Positions 2,495 to 35,324 of a stretch of 41,493 nt of DNA are shown in pieces. Under the pieces are notes generated by a model. The model was not told where the DNA came from. It worked only from the letters and a program-made list of their open reading frames with translations, and searched no databases. The first letter of the stretch is position 1. The number at the start of each line of letters is the position of its first letter. Both the position numbers and the translations under genes were made by a program. The DNA is from Streptosporangiaceae bacterium (GTDB lineage: Bacteria > Actinomycetota > Actinomycetes > Streptosporangiales > Streptosporangiaceae), in NCBI GenBank assembly GCA_052144275.1, contig JBKQQQ010001039.1:1-41493 (forward strand). Reading direction: 5' to 3'.

Positions 2495-3855
2495 AGGGCG
2501 CCCAGGGCAATGCCGAGGGCCTGCAGGGCGTGACGGAGGCGGCTGGCGGCCGGCCCGGTGATCTGCCCTTGTGATTGGTGCTGGTCGTAGGCCTGGATGA
2601 GTTGCTGGTATTGCTGCTGGATCTGCTGGGTGTTCTGGCCTGGCGGGCCGAACAGCAGCTGCTGCAGGTGGTTGAACAGGTCCTGCCCGGCCTGCGGGGT
2701 CACCTGGCCGTCGGCGACGGCGGCTTGCAGGTCGCCGACGAACGCGCCAGCTGCTGCGGCGGCCGGGGGCAGGGCGCTGGCCTGCGTCCGTGCGGCCGCG
2801 TTGCGGGGCGTGGGGGTCGTGCGGACGGCGGCCGCGTGCGTGGCGGCCGGGTGCCCAGGCGGGGAGAAGACCCGGGGATGGCCGGGCACGCCGGCCAGGA
2901 GCACCGCGGCGAGCGCGATCAGCGATGCGGCCAGGGCGGCCGTGAGCACCGCCTCGGCCAGGCGGGGACGCCACCGCCCCGGGCGGCCCGGCTCCGGGTC
3001 GCCGGCCGGTGTCAGCACGGCGGTGGCGTCCGGGGTCAGCGCCGCCAGCAACGCGGCCCTGGCCGCGGCGGCACTGGCCGGCCGGCCGGCCGGGTTCTTG
3101 GCCAGCAGCCGCCCGGTGACCTGGTCGAGCCGGCCGGGCAGCCCGGGGCGCCGAGCCGACGGCGGCCCGGGATCCTCATGGACCTGCCGGTAGGCCAGGC
3201 CGACCGTAGTGCCGGCGGAGAACGGCGGCGCTCCGGTGAGCATCTCGAACAAGACGCAGCCCAGGGAGTACAGGTCGGACTGCGGACCGGCCGCCTGGCC
3301 GGATGCCTGTTCAGGGGACAGGTATGCGGCGGTGCCTAGCACACCTAGAGTCCCGGTCGTGCCGTCGCCGCCATCGGCCCGGGCGATGCCGAAGTCGAGG
3401 ACCTTGACCTCGCCGCCGCCGGTCAGCATGATGTTCGCGGGCTTGATGTCGCGGTGTACCAGCCCGGCCGCGTGCGCGACCTCCAGCGCCTCGCAGACCG
3501 CCGCGGCGATGCGGACCGCCTCCCCTTCCGGCAGCGGGCCGGCCTGGTCCAGGACCTGCCGCAGGGTCGGGCCGACGACCAGCTCCATCACGATGAACGC
3601 CGAGGTCCCGTCCACGCCGGAGTCGAACACGGTCACCAGCCGCGGGTGGCTGAGCCGTGCCGCGTGCCGGGCCTCTCGCTCAAACCGGGCCAGGAACCCC
3701 GGATCGGCCGCGTACTGCGGGCTGAGCACCTTGACCGCCACATCGCGGCCCAGCACCTCGTCCCTGGCCCGCCACACCATCGCCATGCCGCCCGTACCCA
3801 GGACATCCAGCATCACGTACCGGCCGGCCAGCACCCCGGTGCCCGTCACCGCCAT
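2491..3855 (-). CDS. Ser/Thr protein kinase, membrane-anchored, with a Gln-rich extracytoplasmic tail
   Basis: Hanks kinase motifs are present: LGTGGMAMVWRA, AVKVL, HRDIKPANIM, DFGIA and YLSPEQ. These are followed by a Pro/Ala linker, one TM helix (LTAALAASLIALAAVLLAGV) and a Q-rich C-terminus. The start is set at MAVTGTG (ATG 3855), and the upstream part of the 587-aa ORF looks non-coding. Confidence 0.88.
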   Translation of the reverse strand: MAVTGTGVLAGRYVMLDVLGTGGMAMVWRARDEVLGRDVAVKVLSPQYAADPGFLARFEREARHAARLSHPRLVTVFDSGVDGTSAFIVMELVVGPTLRQVLDQAGPLPEGEAVRIAAAVCEALEVAHAAGLVHRDIKPANIMLTGGGEVKVLDFGIARADGGDGTTGTLGVLGTAAYLSPEQASGQAAGPQSDLYSLGCVLFEMLTGAPPFSAGTTVGLAYRQVHEDPGPPSARRPGLPGRLDQVTGRLLAKNPAGRPASAAAARAALLAALTPDATAVLTPAGDPEPGRPGRWRPRLAEAVLTAALAASLIALAAVLLAGVPGHPRVFSPPGHPAATHAAAVRTTPTPRNAAARTQASALPPAAAAAGAFVGDLQAAVADGQVTPQAGQDLFNHLQQLLFGPPGQNTQQIQQQYQQLIQAYDQHQSQGQITGPAASRLRHALQALGIALGAL

Positions 3856-4357
3856 GACTGCGCCCCGCGCCAGATGCCCGCCCGATCCGCGCCAGGCAGA
3901 GTACAGGCTCGCGAGGTGCGCCCGCACGTAGCCGCCGGCCACCCGGCCCTGACGTCCGCGGAAAAGACCGCAGGCTCCTGGCTCATAGCCCAGAACATAC
4001 CTAAAGCGCCCCCGCACGGCAGCGTCTTCCGCGCCGCTCACGCATGCTGCACCTCCCTGGTGCGGTCCCGGCCCTGAGCAGATCCACCGCCCGCGCGGCG
4101 CCACGGCCTCTCGCGACGTCGCTCGCCCGCGTCGCCAGCCATCGTTCCTGATGCCCGGCCCCGGCTCCCGGCGCGTGCTGGGGTGCCAGGCATCAGCCCA
4201 AGCTTCCTGGCCGCCGCCACTGGTCCAGGCACGCCCCGGCGGGGCACCGTTCACCGGCTAGCCGCAGGTACATCGCCGCTGCAGCATCCGGCAACCCGGC
4301 AGCGGCCGCGCCCATAGTTGCGGGCAGCCGGGCGGCGCCGGTATCTTCCGGCGAATC

Positions 4358-4375
4358 CATCAAACTGACTTGATG
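4358..4375. promoter_or_regulatory. inverted repeat CATCAA-N6-TTGATG overlapping the arsR-arsC start codon (candidate ArsR operator)
   Basis: The repeat has perfect 6-bp arms, or 8-bp arms with one mismatch. It lies in a locally AT-richer patch immediately at the start of the ArsR-fusion gene. Confidence 0.35.
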
Positions 4376-5158
4376 TATTCTCTAGGGGTGGGGTCAGGCA
4401 CGCAGCCCGCGCCGCCGCCGTTCGCGCGGCTGGCGGGCCATCCGCTGCGCTGGCGGCTGCTGCGTGAGCTCGCGCGCAGCGATCTGCGGGTGCGGGAACT
4501 GGCGATGCTGGCCGGGCAGCCGCAGAACCTGGTCTCCTACCACCTGGCGCAGCTCCGGGGCAGTGGCCTGGTGGGGACGAGGCGCAGCAGCTTCGACGGC
4601 CGTGACACCTATTACCACCTTGACCTGGCGCGGTGCGCGCGGTCGCTGGCGGCGGCCGGGGCGGCGCTGCATCCCGGGTTGCGGCTTGATCCCGTACCCG
4701 TGGCCCTGGTCACGGGGCGGTGCACGGTGCTGTTCTTGTGCACCGGCAACAGCGCCCGCTCGCAGGTGGCTGAGGCGCTGGCCCAGGCCCGGTCCGGCGG
4801 CCGGGTGCAAGCGGCCAGCGCGGGCAGCCAGCCCAGGCCGCTGCACCCCGATGCGGTGCGGGTGATGGCGGCCCGGGGCATCGACCTGGCCGGGCGGCAC
4901 GCCAAGCATTACCGCGTGTTCGCAGGGCACCGGTTCGACTACGTGATCACCTTGTGCGACCGGGTCCGGGAAGCCTGCCCGGAGTTCCCCGGCCATCCCG
5001 CCGCCGTCCACTGGAGCATCCCCGACCCGGCCGCCGGCGGTGACGTGGACACGTACCCGGCGTTCGAGCGGATGGCGGCCGATCTGGACGCCCGGATCGG
5101 GTTCTGGCTTGCTGCTGTCAGCGCAGCGCCCGCGCATGCATCTGTCCAGGAGGTGTGA
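4373..5158 (+). CDS. ArsR/SmtB-family HTH fused to an LMW-PTP-type arsenate reductase (ArsC)
   Basis: The N-terminal half is an ArsR wHTH (LRWRLLRELARSDLRVRELAMLAGQPQNLVSYHLAQLR). The C-terminal half has the P-loop CTGNSARS and the Cys pair in TLCDRVREACP, which is typical of thioredoxin-coupled ArsC. The start could be ATG 4373 or GTG 4388. Confidence 0.8.
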   Translation: MYSLGVGSGTQPAPPPFARLAGHPLRWRLLRELARSDLRVRELAMLAGQPQNLVSYHLAQLRGSGLVGTRRSSFDGRDTYYHLDLARCARSLAAAGAALHPGLRLDPVPVALVTGRCTVLFLCTGNSARSQVAEALAQARSGGRVQAASAGSQPRPLHPDAVRVMAARGIDLAGRHAKHYRVFAGHRFDYVITLCDRVREACPEFPGHPAAVHWSIPDPAAGGDVDTYPAFERMAADLDARIGFWLAAVSAAPAHASVQEV

Positions 5159-5559
5159 TGACGAATCCGCAAGAGGTGGTTAGCGTCCGCTACATGGTCG
5201 ATGACGTGCAGGAAGCCGTCGGCTTCTATACCGGCCACCTCGGCTTCACGCTGCTGTCCAGCGCGGCGCCCGCGTTCGCCGACGTCGCCCGCGGCAGCCT
5301 GCGGCTGCTGCTGGCCGGCCCGCAAAGCTCAGCAGGCCGGCCCATGCCCGATGGCCGCAAGCCCCGGCCGGGCGGCTGGAACCGGATTCACCTGATCGTG
5401 GCGGACATCGCGGCGGAGGTCGCCCGGCTCCGCGCCGAAGGCGTGCGCTTCCCCAACGAGATCGTCACCGGCCCCGGCGGGAAGCAGATCCTGATCGAGG
5501 ACCCGGCGGGGAACGTGGTCGAGTTGTTCCAGCCCGCCACCTCTCCGCCCGGCCGCTGA
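5158..5559 (+). CDS. VOC (glyoxalase/bleomycin-resistance fold) family protein
   Basis: The 133-aa ORF shows VRYMVDDVQEAVGFYTGHLGF...IEDPAGNVVELFQ, the typical VOC beta-alpha-beta-beta-beta signature. Its start overlaps the upstream stop (TGATG). Confidence 0.75.
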   Translation: MTNPQEVVSVRYMVDDVQEAVGFYTGHLGFTLLSSAAPAFADVARGSLRLLLAGPQSSAGRPMPDGRKPRPGGWNRIHLIVADIAAEVARLRAEGVRFPNEIVTGPGGKQILIEDPAGNVVELFQPATSPPGR

Positions 5560-6743
5560 TGCCGGCCGCTGCCGGGGAGGGGGCCCCGGCGCCGCTGCCC
5601 GGCCCGGGGCTCGGCACGGTGCTGCGCGAGTGGGGCCGGATCGGCTGCATCGGGTTCGGCGGGCCGCCGACCCACATCAGGCTGCTGCGCGAGCTGTGCG
5701 TCGAGCGGGAGCACTGGCTGGACGCGGCCGAGTTCGAGGACGCGATCGCCGCGTGCAACCTGCTGCCCGGCCCGGCCTCCACCCAGCTGGCGATCTTCTG
5801 CGCCTGGCGGGTCCGCGGCCGGGCCGGCGCGCTGGCTGGCGGTGCCGCGTTCATCGTCCCTGGCCTGATCGTGATCCTCGCCCTGGCCGCGCTGTTCCTC
5901 AGCGGCAGCCCGCCGCTGTGGGTGCTCGGCGCCGGCGCGGGCGCCGGGGCCGCCGTTCCCGCGGTCGCCCTCCAGGCCGGCGCTTCCCTGCTCGGCGCCA
6001 GCTGGCAGCGCCGCAAGCAGGCCATCCGCTGGCTGGCCTACCTGGTCGCCGGGGCGGCCGCCGCCGCGGTCATCGGCGTGTGGCTGGTCCTGGTCCTGCT
6101 CTGCTGCGGCGTGATCGAGCTCACCGCCCAGCGCGCCATCCCCCGCCTCACGACGACGAACGGGATCACCGCGTTCCCGCTGCTGGCTGCCGGAGCGGTC
6201 ACCGGCGGGACGCTGCTGTCGGTGGCCTGGGTGGCGTTCAAGGTCGGCGCCCTGTCTTTCGGCGGCGGGTTCGTGATCATCCCGCTGATGCAATCCGACG
6301 CCGTCGGCCACTACCACTGGATGACCAGCACCCAGTTCCTCAATGCCGTCGCGCTCGGCCAGATCACCCCCGGCCCGGTCGTGCAGACCGTCGCGGTGGT
6401 CGGCTACGCCGCCGCGGGCCTGGCCGGCGGACTGCTCGCCTCCGCGGTCGCGTTCACGCCGTCGTTCGCGTTCATCCTGCTCGGCGCGCACCGGTTCGAC
6501 CGCATCCGCGGCAACCCGACTGCCCGCGCGTTCCTCGACGGGGCCGGCCCGGCCGCGATCGGCGCCATCCTCGGCTCGGCCATCCCGCTGACCCGCGCAC
6601 TCGGGCAGCCCTGGCAATACGCCATCCTGGCCGCCGCCATCCTCATGCTCTTCCCGCTGCGCCGCGGTGTCGTGCTCACCCTGCTGGGTGCCGGCGCCGC
6701 CGGAGCGATAATCGCCGTTGGCGGCGCGGCGCTGCCCCATTAA
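5559..6743 (+). CDS. chrA: chromate transporter ChrA (two-domain CHR family)
   Basis: FGGPPTHIRLLRELCVEREHWLDAAEFEDAIAACNLLPGPASTQLAIF is followed by a second repeat, SFGGGFVIIPLMQ...LGQITPGPVV. The protein is polytopic. Its start overlaps the VOC stop by 1 nt. Confidence 0.9.
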   Translation: MPAAAGEGAPAPLPGPGLGTVLREWGRIGCIGFGGPPTHIRLLRELCVEREHWLDAAEFEDAIAACNLLPGPASTQLAIFCAWRVRGRAGALAGGAAFIVPGLIVILALAALFLSGSPPLWVLGAGAGAGAAVPAVALQAGASLLGASWQRRKQAIRWLAYLVAGAAAAAVIGVWLVLVLLCCGVIELTAQRAIPRLTTTNGITAFPLLAAGAVTGGTLLSVAWVAFKVGALSFGGGFVIIPLMQSDAVGHYHWMTSTQFLNAVALGQITPGPVVQTVAVVGYAAAGLAGGLLASAVAFTPSFAFILLGAHRFDRIRGNPTARAFLDGAGPAAIGAILGSAIPLTRALGQPWQYAILAAAILMLFPLRRGVVLTLLGAGAAGAIIAVGGAALPH

Positions 6744-26385: not shown

Positions 26386-28447
<2,062 letters not shown>

Positions 28448-28505
28448 CCGCTACCCATCCAGCAGCGAGCAGCCAACCCCACGACCAGCCAGCCGGAAGG
28501 ATGCC

Positions 28506-28877
28506 ATGGACCTGACGTCGGCGGTGCAGAAGATCCTCAGCAGGCCCTACGGGAAGGTGTCCGCCGCGCAAGCAGCCGCTCTCGCGGACCGCGGCGCGAT
28601 CCTGCTCGACGTCCGCGAACCCCGCGAATGGCAAGCAGGCCACGCGCTGCGGGCACGCCACATCCCGCTGAGCCAGATCCCCCGGCGGGCAGCAGAACTG
28701 CCGGAGCGCCGCGCGGTGGTGACCGTGTGCCGCTCCGGCGCCCGGTCGGCCCGCGCCGCCTCACTGCTCGCCCGGGACGGCCGCGAGGTGTGGAACCTGG
28801 CCGGCGGGATGCACGCCTGGGCACGCGCCGGGCTGCCCGTCGTCGCCAAGGGCGGCGGTCGCGGCCACATCGCCTGA
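28506..28877 (+). CDS. single-domain rhodanese sulfurtransferase
   Basis: LLDVREPREWQAGHALRARHIPL is present, with active-site loop CRSGARS. The ORF is 123 aa. Confidence 0.85.
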   Translation: MDLTSAVQKILSRPYGKVSAAQAAALADRGAILLDVREPREWQAGHALRARHIPLSQIPRRAAELPERRAVVTVCRSGARSARAASLLARDGREVWNLAGGMHAWARAGLPVVAKGGGRGHIA

Positions 28878-29070
28878 GGCGCAGGCGGCCATGCCCGCGC
28901 AGCAGCTGGCAGAACAAGATCTGCGAACACCGGCCAGGTACTGGCCGTACCCGGCAGGAACGGAGAACCCAGGCAGGCTCCGCCTGATACCGCCGAGGTT
29001 GCGGGTTCCGCAGGCGTTCCCGTGCAGATGAGCGCATCCTCCGTTGGTAGGCCACGTTGCGGAGGTTGCC

Positions 29071-30690
29071 ATGGCGTCCCGGCTCAAGCGATCGGTACCG
29101 GTCACGGTGAACGACGTGCTCGACGGGCATGCGGCGCTCGACTTGGAGTGCCTGGATCGTCTCTACCTGCACGGCTACCTGGGCCAGTTGCAGGTCGGCG
29201 GGCAGGTGATCCAGTTCCTGAACCACCGGGGGTACCCGGTGCCATCCCCGGCGTGCCTGCAGCAGATCGGCGATGCCTTCCGCCGCCGGGTCGCCTCGTT
29301 CGCCGCGGCCAATCACCTCCCGGTGGTGACGCTGAAGGCCGCTGACCGCAACATCGACATCATGAAGCCCTACCTGGCTAAGGCCGCGGCCACGGGCCGG
29401 TCGCAGGTCGCGGCGATCGGGGTGGCCCAGGAAACCCAGCGGGTGTTCATCGCCCGCAAGCGCGATACCGACCCGTCCAAGTGCCCGCAGTTCTCCTTCG
29501 ACAAGAAGGACCGCCGGGTCACGGTGTACTACTTCTACCTGTGGGACGCGAGCTTCGGGCCGGCGTTCATCAAGGTCTGCACGTACTGCCCCTGGCCAGT
29601 GAAAATCTGGGTCAACGGGCATGAGTGGGCCAAGCAGCAGGCACGCAAGGCCGGCCTGCCCTTCACCGAGCTGTCCAACGGCTTTGCCTCCTGCGAGAAT
29701 CCCGCCCTGCTGCAGAGGATCTGCGACGCGCTGCAGCCCGGCACGATCACCGTGTTCGTCCAGCGGTGGCTGCACCGGCTGCCGCTGCCGCTCGGGCCCG
29801 CCGATCAGCAGGCCGGCTACTGGTGGGAGTGCTCCATGGCCCAGGTCGAGGTCTCCCGCACCATCGTGTTCACCCAGCCGCGCTATGCCCGGGCCTTCTT
29901 CGACGCCCTGGTCACCGACAACCTCGATCTCGGCCGCCCGGACACCCTGGAGATCATCTTCGACCGGCAGGTCCGGTCCAGCACCGCAGGCGAGTTCAGG
30001 ACCAATGTGATCACCCGCGGCACCGAGGTCACCATCAACGCCTTCTACAAGCACTCGCGCATTAAGCAGTACTTGAAAGACGGCCGCGCCCTGCGGGTGG
30101 AAACCGTCGTGAACGCGCCCGGCGACCCGGGCTGCCAGCGGCGCCTGCATAACCTTGACGAGCTTCAGGCCCGGGCGCGTGCGGTCAACGCCCGCCTGTT
30201 GCACACTGAACGTGCCGGCCAGGCCTGCGTCCTTGCGAATCCAGTCTTCGAGCGGATCGCGCACCCATCCGTGGATGCGGACGGGCGGAGAGCTACAGCC
30301 ATGCGCTTTGGCGACTCTCGGGTCCAGGCCCTGGCCGGCGCCCTGTGCGTTACCTTGTGCGCCGTCACCGGCATCACCAACAGGAGCCTGCGCGCCCTGA
30401 TGACCGGACTGCTCGGCGCTCCCTATTCGATGGCCCAGGCCTCCTACGACCTGGCACGGCTGCGCCGCAACGGCCTGATCACCCGCCGCCCGCACGCCAA
30501 CACCTACGATCTCACCGCCGACGGACTGGCATTCTCCGTCTTCTACACCAAGGTCCACGACCGGGTCCTGGCCCCGCTGTTCGCCGCCGGGCAGCCCCAG
30601 GCCCCGCCCCAGCTCCGCGCCGCTATCAAGACAATCGAACATCACATCGATGAACGTCTCGCCCAGTCAAGGCTGCCTGCGACAGCCTGA
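29071..30690 (+). CDS. uncharacterised ~540-aa protein, paralogue A (C-terminal winged-helix-like domain)
   Basis: ATG 29071 follows GGAGG. GC3 is high. Conserved blocks are shared with 30821-32473 (YYFYLWDASFGPAFIKV...VNGHEW; LRVETVVN; QASYDLARLRRNGLI). No named family recognised. Confidence 0.7.
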   Translation: MASRLKRSVPVTVNDVLDGHAALDLECLDRLYLHGYLGQLQVGGQVIQFLNHRGYPVPSPACLQQIGDAFRRRVASFAAANHLPVVTLKAADRNIDIMKPYLAKAAATGRSQVAAIGVAQETQRVFIARKRDTDPSKCPQFSFDKKDRRVTVYYFYLWDASFGPAFIKVCTYCPWPVKIWVNGHEWAKQQARKAGLPFTELSNGFASCENPALLQRICDALQPGTITVFVQRWLHRLPLPLGPADQQAGYWWECSMAQVEVSRTIVFTQPRYARAFFDALVTDNLDLGRPDTLEIIFDRQVRSSTAGEFRTNVITRGTEVTINAFYKHSRIKQYLKDGRALRVETVVNAPGDPGCQRRLHNLDELQARARAVNARLLHTERAGQACVLANPVFERIAHPSVDADGRRATAMRFGDSRVQALAGALCVTLCAVTGITNRSLRALMTGLLGAPYSMAQASYDLARLRRNGLITRRPHANTYDLTADGLAFSVFYTKVHDRVLAPLFAAGQPQAPPQLRAAIKTIEHHIDERLAQSRLPATA

Positions 30691-30704
30691 CAAACTCAGC
30701 TCAA

Positions 30705-30792
30705 CCGTCGGAGTCCTCGACCCATAGGGTCGCTACGCTCCGTCCGGGACTTCGCCCGGAAGGAGTGGCGCTTCGCGCCGTTCGGCTGACGG
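30705..30792 (+). other. cloverleaf-like structured spacer (7-bp closing stem plus three hairpins)
   Basis: The closing stem pairs 30705-30711 with 30786-30792. The hairpins are 30718-30732 (6 bp), 30743-30760 (6 bp) and 30767-30779 (5 bp). The strand is assumed from the flanking genes. Confidence 0.35.
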
Positions 30793-30820
30793 CTAGCGCG
30801 CAGGCTGGCACGTTTGGCGC

Positions 30821-32473
30821 GTGGCTGATGACTTCTCCGCGCGGTACGGCGATCTGATCAATGGCAGTTATGACTGCGTGGACCGGGTGGTGCTGAACGC
30901 CTGGTTCCCGATGGGGGTGAACCCGGGCGGGTTCCGGACCTGGTGGCGGCGGCTGCACGGCGGCGATGATCAGCTGGATAACACGCACCTGATGCGGATG
31001 GCCGGGCGGTTCGCCCGCCGGGTCAAGGCCTGGGCGGCCGCGAACGGCGTCCCGGTCATCTTCTGCAAGGCCGGGGAGCGTAAGCACCTGATCGCCGAGG
31101 AGTACCTGGAGACTCACGTGGTCACCACAGGGGTGTTCCTGGTCCTGGCGGCCAAGGCGCCGGCCGCGGTATGGAAGGTGCACCGGTCCGCGCGCGGGGT
31201 CATCACGAACCTGGAGAAGAAGAGGGAGTACGTCTACCACTACAGCTTCCACATCATGGACCCGGCGTTCGGGCACCTGGCCATCAAGATGTCCGGGCAC
31301 CCGCCGTTCGGGGCGCAGGTGATGCTCAACGGCCACGAGTACGTCGCGGTCGCCGCGCAGGGGGAGGGCATCGGCTTCACGAAGGAGGGGAACTGTTTTA
31401 CTGAGATCGCGGATCCGCAGCGCCTGGCCCGGGTCGCAGATGCCTGGCCGCGTGACGCGGCTATAGGGCGCCTGGGCCAGGTCTGCGACCGGTGGATCTA
31501 TTCGGCCTGCCTGTGCTTCGGCCTGGACCTGGCCGAGCAGCAGGCCAGCGGGTTCTGCTACGCCTACTCGGTCTACCAGGCCGAGTATTCCCGGAACCTG
31601 CTGTTCCGATCTGGGGCGCAGATGGAGAAGCTGTTCGACCGGATCCTCGACCGGACCCGGTCCCGGCTGGACATCCCAGCGCTGCGGACCCTGTTCGGCC
31701 TCAAGGCCCGGCCCCATCACAACCGCAAGCACGGCCCGCCCGCGCAAGACATCGTGATCGAGAAACCGCAGTACGGCCTGAGCTGGTTCCAGATCCGCTT
31801 CGGGCGGCTCCAGCTGAAGGCCTACACCAAGGGCGAACACGTGCTGCGCTTCGAGGCCACCGTGCACAACACCAAAGAGCTGCGCTGCAGCCGCAGCCTG
31901 GAAAACTTCGCCCAGATCATCACCTTGCTCGCCGAGATGGCGGACCGGTTCGCCACCACGCTAGATTGCGCCGACATCGGCTTCCTGCCCGACGGGGTGC
32001 TGGATGAACTGCCGCTGCCCGCCCAGACCGGGACCGGCACGATCGCCGGGGTCGACCTGAACAAGCCGCGGATCCGGGCCGCCCTGTCTGCGGCGCTCGC
32101 CCTGGCCCCGGCACCTGGCGGGTTCACCGTCGCCGAGCACGCCGCCAAGGTCCGCACGATGGCCGGGCACGACGGCTACACCACCCGGCAGGCCGCCTAC
32201 GACCTGCGCAAGCTCCGCGGCAAGCAGCTCATCGATAAACCCGGCAGGACCCGCCGCTACCACGTCCCGCCGGACGGTGCCCGCACCATCGCCGCGCTGC
32301 TTACACTCCGCGATCACGTCATCGCGCCCATCCTGGCCGGGGTCCGCAGCCCCCGCATGGGCCGCAAGCCCAAGATCTGGACCGCCGTCGACCGCGACTA
32401 CGAGACCCTGCGCATCGGCATGCATACCCTGTTCCAGCACGTCGGCATAGACACGCTCCCCGCAGCCGCATAG
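30821..32473 (+). CDS. uncharacterised ~550-aa protein, paralogue B (C-terminal winged-helix-like domain)
   Basis: The ORF starts at GTG 30821. Blocks are shared with paralogue A (YHYSFHIMDPAFGHLAIKM...LNGHEY; LRFEATVHN; QAAYDLRKLRGKQLI). Confidence 0.7.
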   Translation: MADDFSARYGDLINGSYDCVDRVVLNAWFPMGVNPGGFRTWWRRLHGGDDQLDNTHLMRMAGRFARRVKAWAAANGVPVIFCKAGERKHLIAEEYLETHVVTTGVFLVLAAKAPAAVWKVHRSARGVITNLEKKREYVYHYSFHIMDPAFGHLAIKMSGHPPFGAQVMLNGHEYVAVAAQGEGIGFTKEGNCFTEIADPQRLARVADAWPRDAAIGRLGQVCDRWIYSACLCFGLDLAEQQASGFCYAYSVYQAEYSRNLLFRSGAQMEKLFDRILDRTRSRLDIPALRTLFGLKARPHHNRKHGPPAQDIVIEKPQYGLSWFQIRFGRLQLKAYTKGEHVLRFEATVHNTKELRCSRSLENFAQIITLLAEMADRFATTLDCADIGFLPDGVLDELPLPAQTGTGTIAGVDLNKPRIRAALSAALALAPAPGGFTVAEHAAKVRTMAGHDGYTTRQAAYDLRKLRGKQLIDKPGRTRRYHVPPDGARTIAALLTLRDHVIAPILAGVRSPRMGRKPKIWTAVDRDYETLRIGMHTLFQHVGIDTLPAAA

Positions 32474-32509
32474 ACAACATTTTGTCGATCAGAAAATGCA
32501 AGCTCCTAG

Positions 32510-32626
32510 ATGTGCAGTCCCGTCGTCTGTGATCGCTGCAAGAAGATCACCTGGGCCGGCTGCGGCGCCCACGCCGAGCAGGTCCTGGCCAGCGTCCCGG
32601 CGGAGAAACGATGCACCTGCGCCTGA
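32510..32626 (+). CDS. 38-aa Cys-rich protein (not in the ORF track)
   Basis: The ORF reads MCSPVVCDRCKKITWAGCGAHAEQVLASVPAEKRCTCA. It has six Cys and high GC3, and resembles small conserved actinobacterial Cys-rich proteins I recall. It is preceded by the AT-rich hairpin GACAA-catt-TTGTC (32473-32486). Confidence 0.5.
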   Translation: MCSPVVCDRCKKITWAGCGAHAEQVLASVPAEKRCTCA

Positions 32627-32932
32627 CTGGCCGCCGGGCCGGGCTGGCCTGAACACCGGGTGCTTCCCGCACGTACCGGCGATGGTCGCCGGATGCCGGG
32701 ACTTTCGTCGGTGACGGCCGCGCCCCGGGCGCACGGGACCGGTGATGCATGGATTCGGTGCCGGTGACCCTCACGGCCGGCCTGCCCCCGCCCGCTGATC
32801 CGGCCGCGCTGCCGGCCGGGACGGCCAAGTGCGCACCGTGCGGCCGCGCCAGCCGCCTACCTCGGCCGCGAACTTGCAAGGGCCGGGCACACGCCGCCCG
32901 CCGGCACCCGCTACCAGCAAGACGCCGCGCTC

Positions 32933-33096
32933 GGCTAACCCGAAGTTCCCCCCAAGCCGATGAGTCCACGTGTTTGCGCAGCTGGTAGCGCCCTTGATCG
33001 CGGAAATTACATGTCTACGTAGTCATGAGCTGAGGTTGTTTCTCCTGGTCAAGGCCCATGTGGGCTCGCCGCCAGGGGGAACTACGGGCTAACCCG
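32933..33096. repeat. MITE-like unit: ~10-bp direct repeats flanking a 144-bp lower-GC core with 9-bp terminal inverted repeats
   Basis: GGCTAACCCG occurs at 32933-32942 and 33087-33096. AGTTCCCCC (32944-32952) is complementary to GGGGGAACT (33075-33083). The interior is AT-richer and has the hairpin GCGC-AGCTGGTA-GCGC (32976-32991). Confidence 0.35.
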
Positions 33097-33157
33097 CCAG
33101 GGCGCGGGGGCCTGAAGTGGCTCAGGCCTGCGGCGGGAAAGCGTCGCACGCGGCTGC

Positions 33158-33373
33158 CTACAGGAGCAGGGCGGCGGCGAGCTGGCGTGCCTCACCGGCG
33201 GTGAGCCCGGCCCAGGTGCCGTCCCCGGTCCCGGAAGGGGCGCTGACGCCGAGGCTGACGCGCTGCGCCGGGTGCGGGGCCCCGCCGAGGATGAGATGCC
33301 CTACCTGGATCTCCCGGCCGCAGGTGGTCCGGAAGCTGACGTGATGGCGGACGCCTGATGTGCTGGTGTCCAT
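33158..33373 (-). CDS. hypothetical 71-aa protein
   Basis: GC3 is high on this strand. It lies 55 nt downstream of the DUF302 gene in the same orientation. The C-terminal segment reads WAGLTAGEARQLAAALL. No family recognised. Confidence 0.45.
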   Translation of the reverse strand: MDTSTSGVRHHVSFRTTCGREIQVGHLILGGAPHPAQRVSLGVSAPSGTGDGTWAGLTAGEARQLAAALLL

Positions 33374-33428
33374 GGCATGCCTCCGCGCAATCGCAGGATG
33401 TGCCGGGCCGGAGCGAGGCCCGGCGACG

Positions 33429-33818
33429 TCATGAGGCGAGCGCGGCGAGGGCGGCGCCGAGGCGCCGCGCCACCTCGTCAGCGACCGGCTTCAGCTCGGG
33501 CCGTCCGGTCAGGGCGACCATGACCTGCGGGTCGAGCGCCTCCACGACGGTGCCGCCCCCCGCAGCGCGGACGACGACATTGCAGGGCAGCAGCAACCCG
33601 ATGCTCCGGTCGACCTCAAGTGCCTGATGGGCGAACGGCGGGTTGCAGGCGCCCAGGATGACGTAGTCCTCGATCTGCTCCCCGAGCTTGTCCCGCAGGG
33701 TGGCAGTCACATCGATCTCGGTGAGCACGCCGAACCCCTGGCCCTCCAGGGCATCGCGCACCCGGGCGACCGCGTCGGGGAACGGGAGATCCACGGTGAT
33801 GCTGGTGCCGTAGCTCAC
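33429..33818 (-). CDS. DUF302-domain protein
   Basis: FPDAVARVRDALEGQGFGVLTEIDVTATLRDKLG...ILGACNPPFAHQAL...LLPCNVVV is the DUF302 signature. The start forms a GTGA overlap with the trx stop. Confidence 0.8.
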   Translation of the reverse strand: MSYGTSITVDLPFPDAVARVRDALEGQGFGVLTEIDVTATLRDKLGEQIEDYVILGACNPPFAHQALEVDRSIGLLLPCNVVVRAAGGGTVVEALDPQVMVALTGRPELKPVADEVARRLGAALAALAS

Positions 33819-34356: not shown

Positions 34357-35324
34357 GGCGTGTCCCGTGGATCTTCGAAGCGGGGTCGTGTAGACCAGTG
34401 CGATGCCTGACCGACTGAATCGTCATGACCTGACCGATGAGGAATGGGAGCGCCTTCGGGTGCTCCTGCCGTCCGGCCCGCAGCAGCGCGGCGGCCGCTG
34501 GGCCGATCACCGGACGGTGATCAACGGGATCTTCTTCCGGACCCGGGCGGGCTGCCCGTGGCGGGACCTGCCCGAGGGCTTCGGGAACTGGAAGACCGTC
34601 TATAACCGGCATCGCCGCTGGTCCCTGGACGGGGCCTGGGAGCAGATCCTGGACGGGCTCCGGGCCGGGTGCGACGAGGCTGAGGGCAGGGACTGGACAG
34701 TGAGCGCGGACTCCACCGTCGCCCGGGCCCATCAGCACGCGGCCGGGGCCCGCCGCGTCCCGGCCGCTGATGATCTCACGGGGGGCTCTGGCGAATGACA
34801 GGAAATCGGGCCGGGAGGCGATCGGCCGGTCCCGGGGCGGGCTGACGACCAAGATCCACCTGGCCGCTGACCTGCGCTGCCGCCCCATCGCGCGGCTGAC
34901 CAGCTGCGGCCAGCATGGTGACTCCCCGCGGTTCGTCCCGCTGATGGATGCGATCCGGATCCGCCGCCGCGGGAAAGGACGGCCACGCCGGCGGCCCGGC
35001 CGGGCAATGGCGGATAAGGCGTATTCCTCCCGCGCGAACCGCGCCTGGCTGCGCCAGCACGGCATCCAGGCGGTCATCCCGGTCAAGGAGGACCAGAAGA
35101 AGCACCGCCGTGACCGGGGCCGGGCCGGCGGCCGCCCGCCGGCCTTCGACGCCTCCTGGTACAAAAAGCGCAACACCGTGGAGCGCTGCTTCAGCAAGCT
35201 CAAGCAGTTCCGGGCGGTGGCCACCCGTTATGACAAGCGTGAGCGGATTTACCAGGGCACCATCGACGTGGCCTCGATCAGCATCTGGCTGCGCGACCCC
35301 GTCCCATGATCCACGGGACACGAC
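34357..35324 (+). mobile_element. IS5-family insertion sequence (IS427-like, two-frame transposase)
   Basis: Perfect 15-bp terminal inverted repeats (CGTGTCCCGTGGATC) lie at 34359-34373 and 35308-35322. The element is flanked by CTAG at 34353-34356 and 35325-35328, a candidate target duplication. It encodes a DDE transposase. Confidence 0.85.
34403..35309 (+). CDS. IS5-family transposase (orfA 34403-34798 and orfB 34770-35309, joined by a frameshift)
   Basis: orfA has the DUF4096-type N-terminus (LTDEEWERLRVLLP...GRPWADHR-like, NGIFFRTRAGCPWRDLP). orfB has the DDE C-terminus (GRSRGGLTTKIHLAAD, ADKAYSS, YKKRNTVERCFSKLKQFRAVATRYDK). The 29-nt overlap contains a G6 run (34780-34785). orfB is +1 relative to orfA. 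Confidence 0.85.

Follow-up and report, generated by a model that had tools for sequence, protein, structure and literature searches.

Two tandem insertion sequences in a Streptosporangiaceae contig suggest an undescribed CTAG-targeting family with a candidate Rep_trans-like transposase

We examined a pair of co-directional open reading frames (ORFs), ORF A and ORF B, in a 41,493-nt stretch of DNA from a Streptosporangiaceae bacterium (contig JBKQQQ010001039.1), here called the window; coordinates are window positions throughout. Each ORF lies in its own single-gene mobile element, A or B, and the two elements stand in tandem and do not form one module. Both are almost certainly autonomous elements that insert at the tetranucleotide CTAG. 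We consider it likely that they are two members of a previously undescribed family of CTAG-targeting insertion sequences (ISs), with a transposase resembling the Rep_trans rolling-circle initiators and a single-strand or rolling-circle route of movement. An earlier note, written from the letters of this DNA alone, had described the pair as one candidate mobile or DNA-targeting module. Its suggestion of mobility held, as the elements occur in multiple copies with exact ends and unrelated flanks; the single module of tandem paralogues gave way to two autonomous elements that re-used one CTAG, though the pair has also become a composite that moves as a unit.

The insertion is documented by six metagenome contigs (L108-L113), 95-98% identical to the flanks of the pair, that carry the empty site GGAACGGAGAAC-CTAG-ATGTGCAGTCC and were located with a DNA pattern spanning the predicted junction. 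The empty site reads GAGAAC-CTAG-ATGTGC, compared with GAGAAC/CCAGG..A..GGGTCG/CTACGC..B..AAGCTC/CTAG/ATGTGC in the window. Because the empty site and the filled site each contain one CTAG, insertion took place immediately 5' of CTAG and nothing was duplicated. These contigs prove the proposal that the pair had entered a once-contiguous locus, and they correct the inserted DNA to 28969-32505, followed directly by the target CTAG. Contigs that encode the identical copy of the rhodanese found upstream of the pair all carry A+B or break at the repeat, and no empty site was found among them.

Copies elsewhere define the same ends. When element A was compared with 17 independent genomes, homology always ran from 28969 (CCAGRCAGGCTCCGCCTGATACCGCCGAGG) to ...AAAGGGTCG, with unrelated flanks, and DNA matches to ~15 independent genomes put the two limits at 28967-28969 and ~30735; for element B, homology to loci L065, L001, and L012 runs from 30733 to 32492-32509. 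Two B-type proteins, ~90% identical to B, recur unchanged on 13 and on 9 contigs in unrelated neighbourhoods, and B-type copies have base-exact ends, from CTACGCTCCGTCCGGGACTTCGCC... to ...GCAAGCTC. One metagenome-assembled genome (MAG) holds four copies at an identity of at least 99%, and similarity breaks off sharply at their edges. The ORF is the only one in each element and fills ~92% of it; its product is presumably the transposase. Searches around either ORF for terminal inverted or direct repeats returned chance-level pairs only, and no terminal inverted repeats were found in aligned A and B copies.

The target is equally constant. All 14 solitary A copies have CTAG directly after the right end, as do 9 of 10 solitary B copies; the remaining B copy has CTAA. 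In A-clade members down to 55% protein identity, CTAG stands 26-85 nt past the stop codon in every intact copy, compared with a background of 0.86 CTAG per kb in flanking DNA. A fixed tetranucleotide at one end, together with the lack of inverted repeats and of target duplication, is the pattern of IS200/IS605 elements. An N^CYAG reading of the junction fits A, B, and the composite. We also considered a TA-duplication model of the IS630 kind for B, which was rejected as a general model, A and the composite having no duplication.

Since CTAG stays intact beside the right end, it is a reusable target, and this leads to co-directional tandem arrays. The A-to-B tandem recurs at L001, L012, L027, L042, L065, L090, and L096 and on a Mycobacterium riyadhense plasmid. 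A and B have not diverged in step across these tandems (e.g., 93%/71% versus 58%/85%), indicating that A-B tandems formed repeatedly. A third type of element (558 aa, 66% identical to B) occupies B's CTAG at seven loci. Every tandem seen is co-directional despite the palindromic CTAG, which points to strand-specific recognition.

The A+B pair also moves as a composite of ~3.5 kb. A 3,542-bp block with 99.97% identity, bounded precisely by the left end of A and the right end of B, is common to L090 and L096, whose flanking sequences are different on either side of it; the copy in the window (28968-32510) is 91.9% identical to this composite. A composite of A and a miniature inverted-repeat transposable element (MITE), with CTAG on its left, occurs three times in one MAG. 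Both kinds of composite are compatible with one-ended read-through that mobilises adjacent DNA.

The ends of the elements are structured (Table 1). A-clade left ends follow the pattern C(C/T)AG-N-[C/G]AGGC-loop-GCCT[G/C], then a ACCGCCGAGG box, and one stem pair covaries. The left end of B contains two hairpins that begin 3 nt inside the tip (fold z-score -2.2). Across 11 diverged copies, 95.7% of cells are paired compared with 87.5% in shuffles (none of 500 attains this value); both partners are altered in five of the pairs, and slid controls do not exceed 56%. This covariation is supportive of the predicted hairpins, from a small sample of related sequences. Right ends keep a AAACTCAAGAC box and ...AAGGNTCG^CTAG. 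IS200/IS605 elements have conserved subterminal hairpins at both ends; here the left hairpins are supported by covariation, and the right ones occur in many copies yet vary. Rfam returned no known RNA over 28400-33600, and the element ends are therefore not a known RNA. An internal CTAG acting as a universal guide that pairs with the target CTAG was tried and rejected, as only 16 of 54 right-end tips have an internal CTAG.

Table 1. Positions of the two elements, their ends and ORFs, and the insertion site in the window
Feature	Position	Strand	Description
Element A	28969-30732	+	Complete single-gene insertion sequence, 1764 bp, CCAGGCAGG...GGGTCG; left boundary confirmed by empty site
Left end of A	28969-28998	+	CCAG tip; hairpin CAGGC-TCC-GCCTG (28974-28986); box ACCGCCGAGG (28989-28998)
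ORF A	29071-30690	+	539 aa from ATG; alternative TTG start at 29044 gives 548 aa
Right end of A	30691-30732	+	AAACTCAGCTC box; hairpin CGACCC-ATA-GGGTCG (30718-30732)
Element B	30733-32505	+	Complete single-gene insertion sequence, 1773 bp, CTACGCTCC...GCAAGCTC; between right end of A and CTAG
Left-end hairpins of B	30736-30778	+	GCTCCGTCCGGG-ACTTCG-CCCGGAAGGAGT, then GCGC-TTC-GCGC
ORF B	30821-32473	+	550 aa; paralogous putative transposase, invariant residues as in A
Target CTAG	32506-32509		Single, unduplicated; follows right end of B
Cys-rich micro-ORF	32510-32626	+	Candidate, 38 aa (MCSPVVCDRCKKITWAGCGAHAEQVL...); ATG directly after target CTAG; no Pfam match

Several copies depart from these ends or have a recurrent neighbour. 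An IS982-like element of ~1 kb, or its 348-bp MITE derivative (ATGAGTGATTCC...GGAATCACTCAT), lies directly against the left tip of A-type copies with an identical junction in diverged lineages (L003, L009, L012, L016, and L034, ~2880-3898; L045/L055/L059, 3534-3881), and is itself preceded by CTAG in L003, L012, and L045/L055/L059. We rejected this neighbour as the true transposase, many copies lacking it. Just past the stop codon of the family gene, a 17-nt right-end unit, CGACCAAGGNTCGCTAG, stands in 2 to 7 tandem repeats at L005, L025, L026, L028, L030, L040, L046, and L078; each unit ends in CTAG, or in CTAA in L030. These units may have been left behind by insertion and excision recurring at one CTAG, or by slippage at a nick site. 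In the B-type copies of L088 and L093 (~3900-3950), unrelated sequence beside TniB-like genes stands in place of the left end's first 25-30 nt. The replacement takes out the CTACGC tip and half of hairpin 1, and these copies are probably truncated and immobile.

The family is large. A database clustered at 90% identity holds more than 6,000 relatives for each of A and B. The source names shown are all 'hypothetical protein', and many relatives lie on ~2-kb contigs, which would be explained, if the family consists of transposases, by assembly breaking at repeats. An exhaustive profile search of 1.84 billion representatives gave 14,726 clusters at 50% identity (E<=1e-3), 1,330 of them at E<=1e-30. 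Genome matches are mostly to MAGs of Actinomycetota (Streptosporangiaceae, Pseudonocardiaceae, Mycobacterium, and Nocardioides), with a few binned as Acidobacteriota, Dormiibacterota, or Ramlibacter. Plasmids of cultured M. riyadhense, Rhodococcus, Burkholderia, Paraburkholderia, and Caballeronia also bear relatives, almost all annotated 'hypothetical protein', the name that PGAP-annotated RefSeq plasmids give to family genes. A phage collection of 50,697 records contained no relatives. The M. riyadhense plasmid NZ_OY970457 (L097, locus 2800-6560) has an A-like element followed in tandem by a B-like one (65% and 68% identical to A and B), with the same junction, and after them the remnant of another B-type right end; six places on this plasmid match protein A.

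Turning to the proteins, BLASTP aligned ORF A with ORF B over ~509 columns at 25% identity (E 6e-32), in the same order from one terminus to the other, and on this alignment the two are full-length paralogues. The earlier note had recognised two tandem, co-directional ORFs with a common block architecture, and all of the blocks that it quoted fall in invariant or near-invariant columns of our family alignments. Its statement that the family is unrecognised also stands: every curated library searched gave no assignment, and a confident match to a named family, which was looked for there, did not appear. As single proteins, A and B gave nothing above noise against Pfam, NCBIfam, PADLOC, and PHROGs and no match to PDB sequences, and a 50-member family profile gave only noise or weak winged-helix matches against curated libraries. 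Specifically, no match was obtained to PF25227 (DUF7845, Rep-Arvir) in Pfam at E<=10; to PF01797 (Y1_Tnp, the HUH Y1 transposase) in Pfam or NCBIfam; to DEDD_Tnp_IS110 or Transposase_20 (IS110/IS1111) in Pfam or NCBIfam; or, for A or B, to DDE, IS, or NCBIfam transposase models. The HUH Y2 Rep-type transposases gave no Pfam match and differ in fold as well. Weak, sub-threshold Pfam matches at the C-terminus are of helix-turn-helix (HTH)/MarR/PadR type.

A first structure model from a shallow alignment (predicted local distance difference test, pLDDT, 54.5) was unusable and was replaced by an AlphaFold2 model built from a diverse alignment of 50 members, 20-56% identical to A (pLDDT 90.3; predicted template modelling score, pTM, 0.81). 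It contains two repeats with the topology of TATA-binding protein (TBP), S1-H1-S2-S3-S4-S5-H2, at approximately residues 21-193 and 252-384 (a combined span of ~21-350 is also given). These are followed by a helical linker, a winged helix (~416-481), and C-terminal helices. When Foldseek was run on this confident model, as the earlier note had proposed, the top match in the PDB was a Rep_trans rolling-circle initiator, RepSTK1 (4CIJ, chain D; probability 0.97, E 2.9e-3). Lower matches were to other TBP-fold proteins and to the MarR-type winged helices MarR, RosR, and F93, which together with the weak Pfam matches bears out the prediction of a C-terminal winged helix. Searches against BFVD returned giant-virus TBPs with probability up to 1.0. 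No RNase H-fold protein was among the Foldseek matches listed.

Conserved polar residues of the family sit on the strands of the predicted repeats. Seven residues (D29, R30, N182, Q258, Y334, R342, and E344) are invariant in the 50 members, and D159, H184, E260, K332, and K336 are near-invariant, K332 and K336 being present in at least 90%. In the model, D29 lies on the first strand (21-37), and strands 1, 4, and 5 of the second repeat carry Q258-x-E260 (252-267), K332-x-Y334-x-K336 (329-336), and L-R342-x-E344 (340-347), respectively. The active site of Rep_trans enzymes is formed on the face of a beta-sheet by an N-terminal Asp, R-x-D, R189-x-Y191-x-K193, and R212-x-E214, with three carboxylates on separate strands (PMC4797284; motif nomenclature as in PMC5714925). 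K332-x-Y334-x-K336 likewise places a tyrosine on a beta-strand between basic residues, as in Rep_trans motif III (R/K-x-Y-x-K), and three conserved carboxylates (D29, E260, and E344) occupy three strands in the Rep_trans order. On the model, Y334 is the likely nucleophile, and D29 and E344 are probably catalytic; E260 is a better candidate for the second carboxylate than D159. Overall, we regard assignment as a Rep_trans-like tyrosine nuclease, made from the predicted fold and the placement of these residues, as quite likely.

The earlier note had instead read the acidic residues (LDR; WDA/MDP; RVE/RFE) as compatible with an RNase-H-like DDE triad. It was right about their conservation, as D29 ('LDR') and E344 ('RVE/RFE') are invariant in the 50 members and D159 is near-invariant. 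The triad itself is not supported: the predicted fold is TBP-like, and inverted repeats and target duplication are lacking. The note had also missed the invariant tyrosine of K-x-Y334-x-K. An RNase-H-like DDE transposase of a divergent classical IS family is already largely refuted and now barely credible: the near-complete invariance of D29, D159, and E344, and a protein length typical of IS4/IS1634-like transposases, are what it would have to build on, in the face of the absence of any DDE, IS, or NCBIfam transposase match, a confident TBP-like model with no RNase H fold in the Foldseek matches listed, and elements with neither inverted repeats nor a duplicated target.

The comparison with rolling-circle initiators can be extended to whole proteins and their DNA sites. 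The best structural match is to Rep_trans (PF02486), which comprises RepC/RepD of pT181, RepSTK1 of pSTK1, RstA of CTX-phi, and the MOB_T relaxases Orf20 of Tn916 and NicK of ICEBs1. Rep_trans and the present family would have in common a TBP-like beta-sheet catalytic domain with a separate DNA-binding domain after it; the same order of residues on the strands, namely Asp, a second carboxylate, Tyr (RxYxK in Rep_trans, KxYxK here), and RxE on the next strand; and hairpin-containing DNA sites beside the presumed nick site. Unlike Rep_trans enzymes, the family protein is about twice as long, has a first repeat that is enlarged and a genuine winged helix, and shows no detectable sequence similarity to them; it is found in 1.8-kb multi-copy chromosomal insertion sequences, not as the initiator or relaxase of plasmids, phages, or integrative and conjugative elements (ICEs).

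A second relative is Rep-Arvir (DUF7845, PF25227; e.g., RepSNJ2), a group of archaeal rolling-circle initiators shown to be Rep_trans-related (PMC13107129). Like the predicted family protein, these have an N-terminal TBP-fold domain of ~300 aa, a MarR-like winged helix, and a C-terminal domain, and their catalytic layout, E25/D207/Y283/E303, may be set beside D29/E260/Y334/E344 here (PMC13107129). Giant-virus TBPs and Rep_trans, the only Foldseek matches of Rep-Arvir, are part of the signature that the two groups have in common (PMC13107129), and both have a hairpin as a cis element. In contrast to the archaeal Rep-Arvir proteins of viral and plasmid replicons, the family is found in bacteria, chiefly Actinomycetota but also some Burkholderiaceae and other phyla, and resides in integrated multi-copy elements.

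Taken together, the enzyme appears closest to Rep_trans and Rep-Arvir, and the logic of transposition is closest to IS200/IS605 and IS91. IS200/IS605 elements (HUH Y1 TnpA; IS608 and ISDra2) also lack inverted repeats and target duplication, insert beside a specific tetranucleotide at one end that is regenerated on excision, as proposed here, have subterminal hairpins, which here are better supported at the left end, and use a tyrosine nuclease, which in both cases would probably act as a dimer on one strand. The family differs in its enzyme (~540 aa, predicted TBP-like domain plus winged helix, compared with ~150 aa and an HUH/RNA recognition motif (RRM) fold), in the position of CTAG on the 3' (right) side of the gene, and in having no tnpB or omega-RNA. 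IS91, ISCR, and Helitron elements (HUH Y2) likewise have an unduplicated tetranucleotide at one end (GTTC/CTTG in IS91), and their read-through mobilises neighbouring DNA, comparable to the A+B and MITE+A composites. They differ from the family in the HUH motif and fold, which the family lacks, and in having two catalytic tyrosines where the family has one conserved candidate; Helitrons are also much larger. A preference for CTAG is found as well in IS630/Tc1-mariner and IS5-group CTAG-targeting elements, which, unlike the family, have a DDE domain, inverted repeats, and a duplicated TA or CTAG. Judged by the defining sequence features of Rep_trans, Rep-Arvir, IS200/IS605, IS91, DDE, DEDD, and IS630, the family falls outside all of them.

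A possible mechanism would involve a transposase with a double TBP-like catalytic domain of the Rep_trans kind and a winged-helix DNA-binding domain. A dimer would nick a single strand at both ends, on the 5' side of C-Y-A-G/C for the left tip and of the adjoining CTAG for the right end, with Tyr334 forming a 5'-phosphotyrosine link and D29, E260, and E344 holding a metal ion. A single-stranded, probably circular, intermediate would then be released or copied out, the donor would be resealed as N-CTAG, and the intermediate would integrate at another N^CTAG exposed as single-stranded DNA. Composites such as A+B would arise by skipping the internal junction. Movement could be excisive, as for IS608, or replicative, as for IS91; by analogy, it would resemble the 'peel and paste' of IS200/IS605 or the rolling-circle transposition of IS91 and Helitrons, carried out by a non-HUH enzyme. 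Such a single-strand model would account for the missing duplication, for the fixed orientation at a palindrome, and for composites through a skipped junction. For the mechanism taken by itself, we lean slightly toward a single-strand or rolling-circle process. That a non-HUH, TBP-fold tyrosine nuclease with a winged helix uses single-stranded or rolling-circle intermediates to move these 1.8-kb elements into N^CTAG, and represents a further chemical class of prokaryotic transposon, seems to us probable on balance.

A number of results weigh against this reading of enzyme and mechanism. Pfam gave no Rep_trans match for A, B, or the 50 diverse members even at E<=10. The match to 4CIJ_D has a modest E-value and TM scores of only 0.19/0.33 over 372 columns, and TBP-like folds occur in non-nuclease proteins too. 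Aligned with hhalign, the family profile matched a RepC profile with a probability of only 0.1; the RepC profile was shallow (effective number of sequences, Neff, 1.4), the RepC search having returned only staphylococcal Reps at an identity of at least 81%. The presumed clustering of D29, E260, Y334, and E344 in space follows from strand position in the model alone, and the spacing from Tyr to Glu is 10 residues, compared with 17-23 in Rep_trans. As to the DNA, for B, whose left tip is CTAC, the cut site in or beside CTAG has an uncertainty of up to 4 nt, and for B alone a TA duplication remains compatible with the junctions. The right-end hairpins are variable, about one-third forming a perfect CTAG...CTAG stem and the others being shorter. 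We observed no circular junction, excision event, or strand bias with respect to replication.

Some of these points would suit a transposase that acts on double-stranded DNA at CTAG, by cut-and-paste or in a recombinase-like manner, with no single-stranded or rolling-circle intermediate. A palindrome such as CTAG is typical of double-strand recognition, a C-TA-[B]-TA-G duplication of the IS630 kind would fit the junctions of B alone, and Rep_trans enzymes themselves nick supercoiled double-stranded origins (PMC4797284). We nevertheless think this unlikely, as A and the composite show no duplication at all, inverted repeats are lacking, the left-end hairpins are conserved, and the co-directional arrangement of all tandems at a palindromic site argues for strand-specific recognition. 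The units could alternatively be minimal integrated rolling-circle replicons, plasmid- or satellite-like, with a mainly replicative Rep-like protein and chromosomal copies that arose by secondary integration. The structural likeness is indeed to replication initiators, including the Rep-Arvir proteins of similar architecture (PMC13107129), and the hairpins resemble double-strand origins. This explanation appears quite improbable for units of only 1.77 kb that have exact junctions in chromosomes and megaplasmids and many copies per genome; no free circular contig was seen, the ~2-kb contigs end inside repeats and do not close into circles, and the 50,697 phage records hold no relatives.

It is very improbable that the ORF merely travels as cargo, for instance as a DNA-binding regulator or a defence protein, in non-autonomous elements mobilised in trans by some other transposase. 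The activity of the protein is a prediction from sequence and model, and an IS982-like element or MITE often abuts A's left end; many copies, however, have no such neighbour. The ORF is the sole one in an element that it fills almost completely, the ends and the protein diverge together (clades A, B, and C each have their own ends), and the conservation of polar residues over 50 members at 20-56% identity fits an active site. We thus retain as the preferred reading an autonomous IS family with a putative Rep_trans-like transposase.

Known prokaryotic transposase classes are the DDE, DEDD, and HUH enzymes, the serine and tyrosine recombinases, and Cas1. Our literature search found neither a Rep_trans or TBP-fold transposase nor an IS family of this kind, although an ISfinder entry or another paper may exist. 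The roles given for Rep_trans in the 2017 review of rolling-circle initiators (PMC5714925) and in the 2026 Rep-Arvir paper (PMC13107129) are replication and conjugation only.

On gene calls and domain matches, the neighbourhood of the pair is as the earlier note had described it, with a rhodanese gene upstream and the Cys-rich micro-ORF, thioredoxin, and an IS downstream. Upstream lie a metallo-beta-lactamase (MBL)-rhodanese gene and the rhodanese gene, and on near-identical contigs a CsoR-type repressor gene is called slightly further upstream; downstream, the micro-ORF is followed by genes for DUF302 and thioredoxin and by an IS5/IS427-type IS. The latter (34403-35309) has the thioredoxin gene on one side and an aminotransferase class-V gene on the other; its two ORFs (DUF4096, then DDE_Tnp_1) overlap, and a frameshift probably joins them. 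The empty-site contigs have GGAG 7 nt ahead of the micro-ORF's ATG, a position taken in the window by B's right end. Cut off by the insertion from this ribosome-binding site, the micro-ORF is probably silent here. A 645-bp segment (32652-33296) is present in the window and its near-identical contigs L098, L099, and L101 and absent from the empty-site contigs L108, L110, and L112. It holds an inverted repeat (32933-32952/33075-33094) and the 3' part of a 71-aa minus-strand ORF (33158-33373), and the difference may reflect a deletion in the other lineage rather than a MITE-like insertion. Finally, L103 (JBLFKY010068062.1) has the rhodanese left flank and A+B as in the window, followed after B by a GH16 glycoside hydrolase gene in place of the micro-ORF, DUF302, and thioredoxin genes; the cause is a rearrangement involving different element copies or else an assembly that is chimeric at the repeat.

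The local effect of the insertion is that, inside a persulfide/thiol-stress locus, a candidate micro-ORF is parted from its ribosome-binding site. If the preferred reading is true, an abundant IS family with a Rep_trans-like enzyme would add a transposase class, and transposition would have drawn on a second superfamily of rolling-circle nucleases besides the HUH enzymes. Annotation as transposases would then become available for thousands of 'hypothetical proteins' from Mycobacterium, Rhodococcus, Streptosporangiaceae, Burkholderia, and soil MAGs. NZ_OY970457, in a cultured and RefSeq-annotated strain, offers a convenient experimental system. Strict, scarless targeting of N^CTAG with a regenerated target is tractable, and these elements may provide an insertion tool for high-GC bacteria, in which CTAG is rare.

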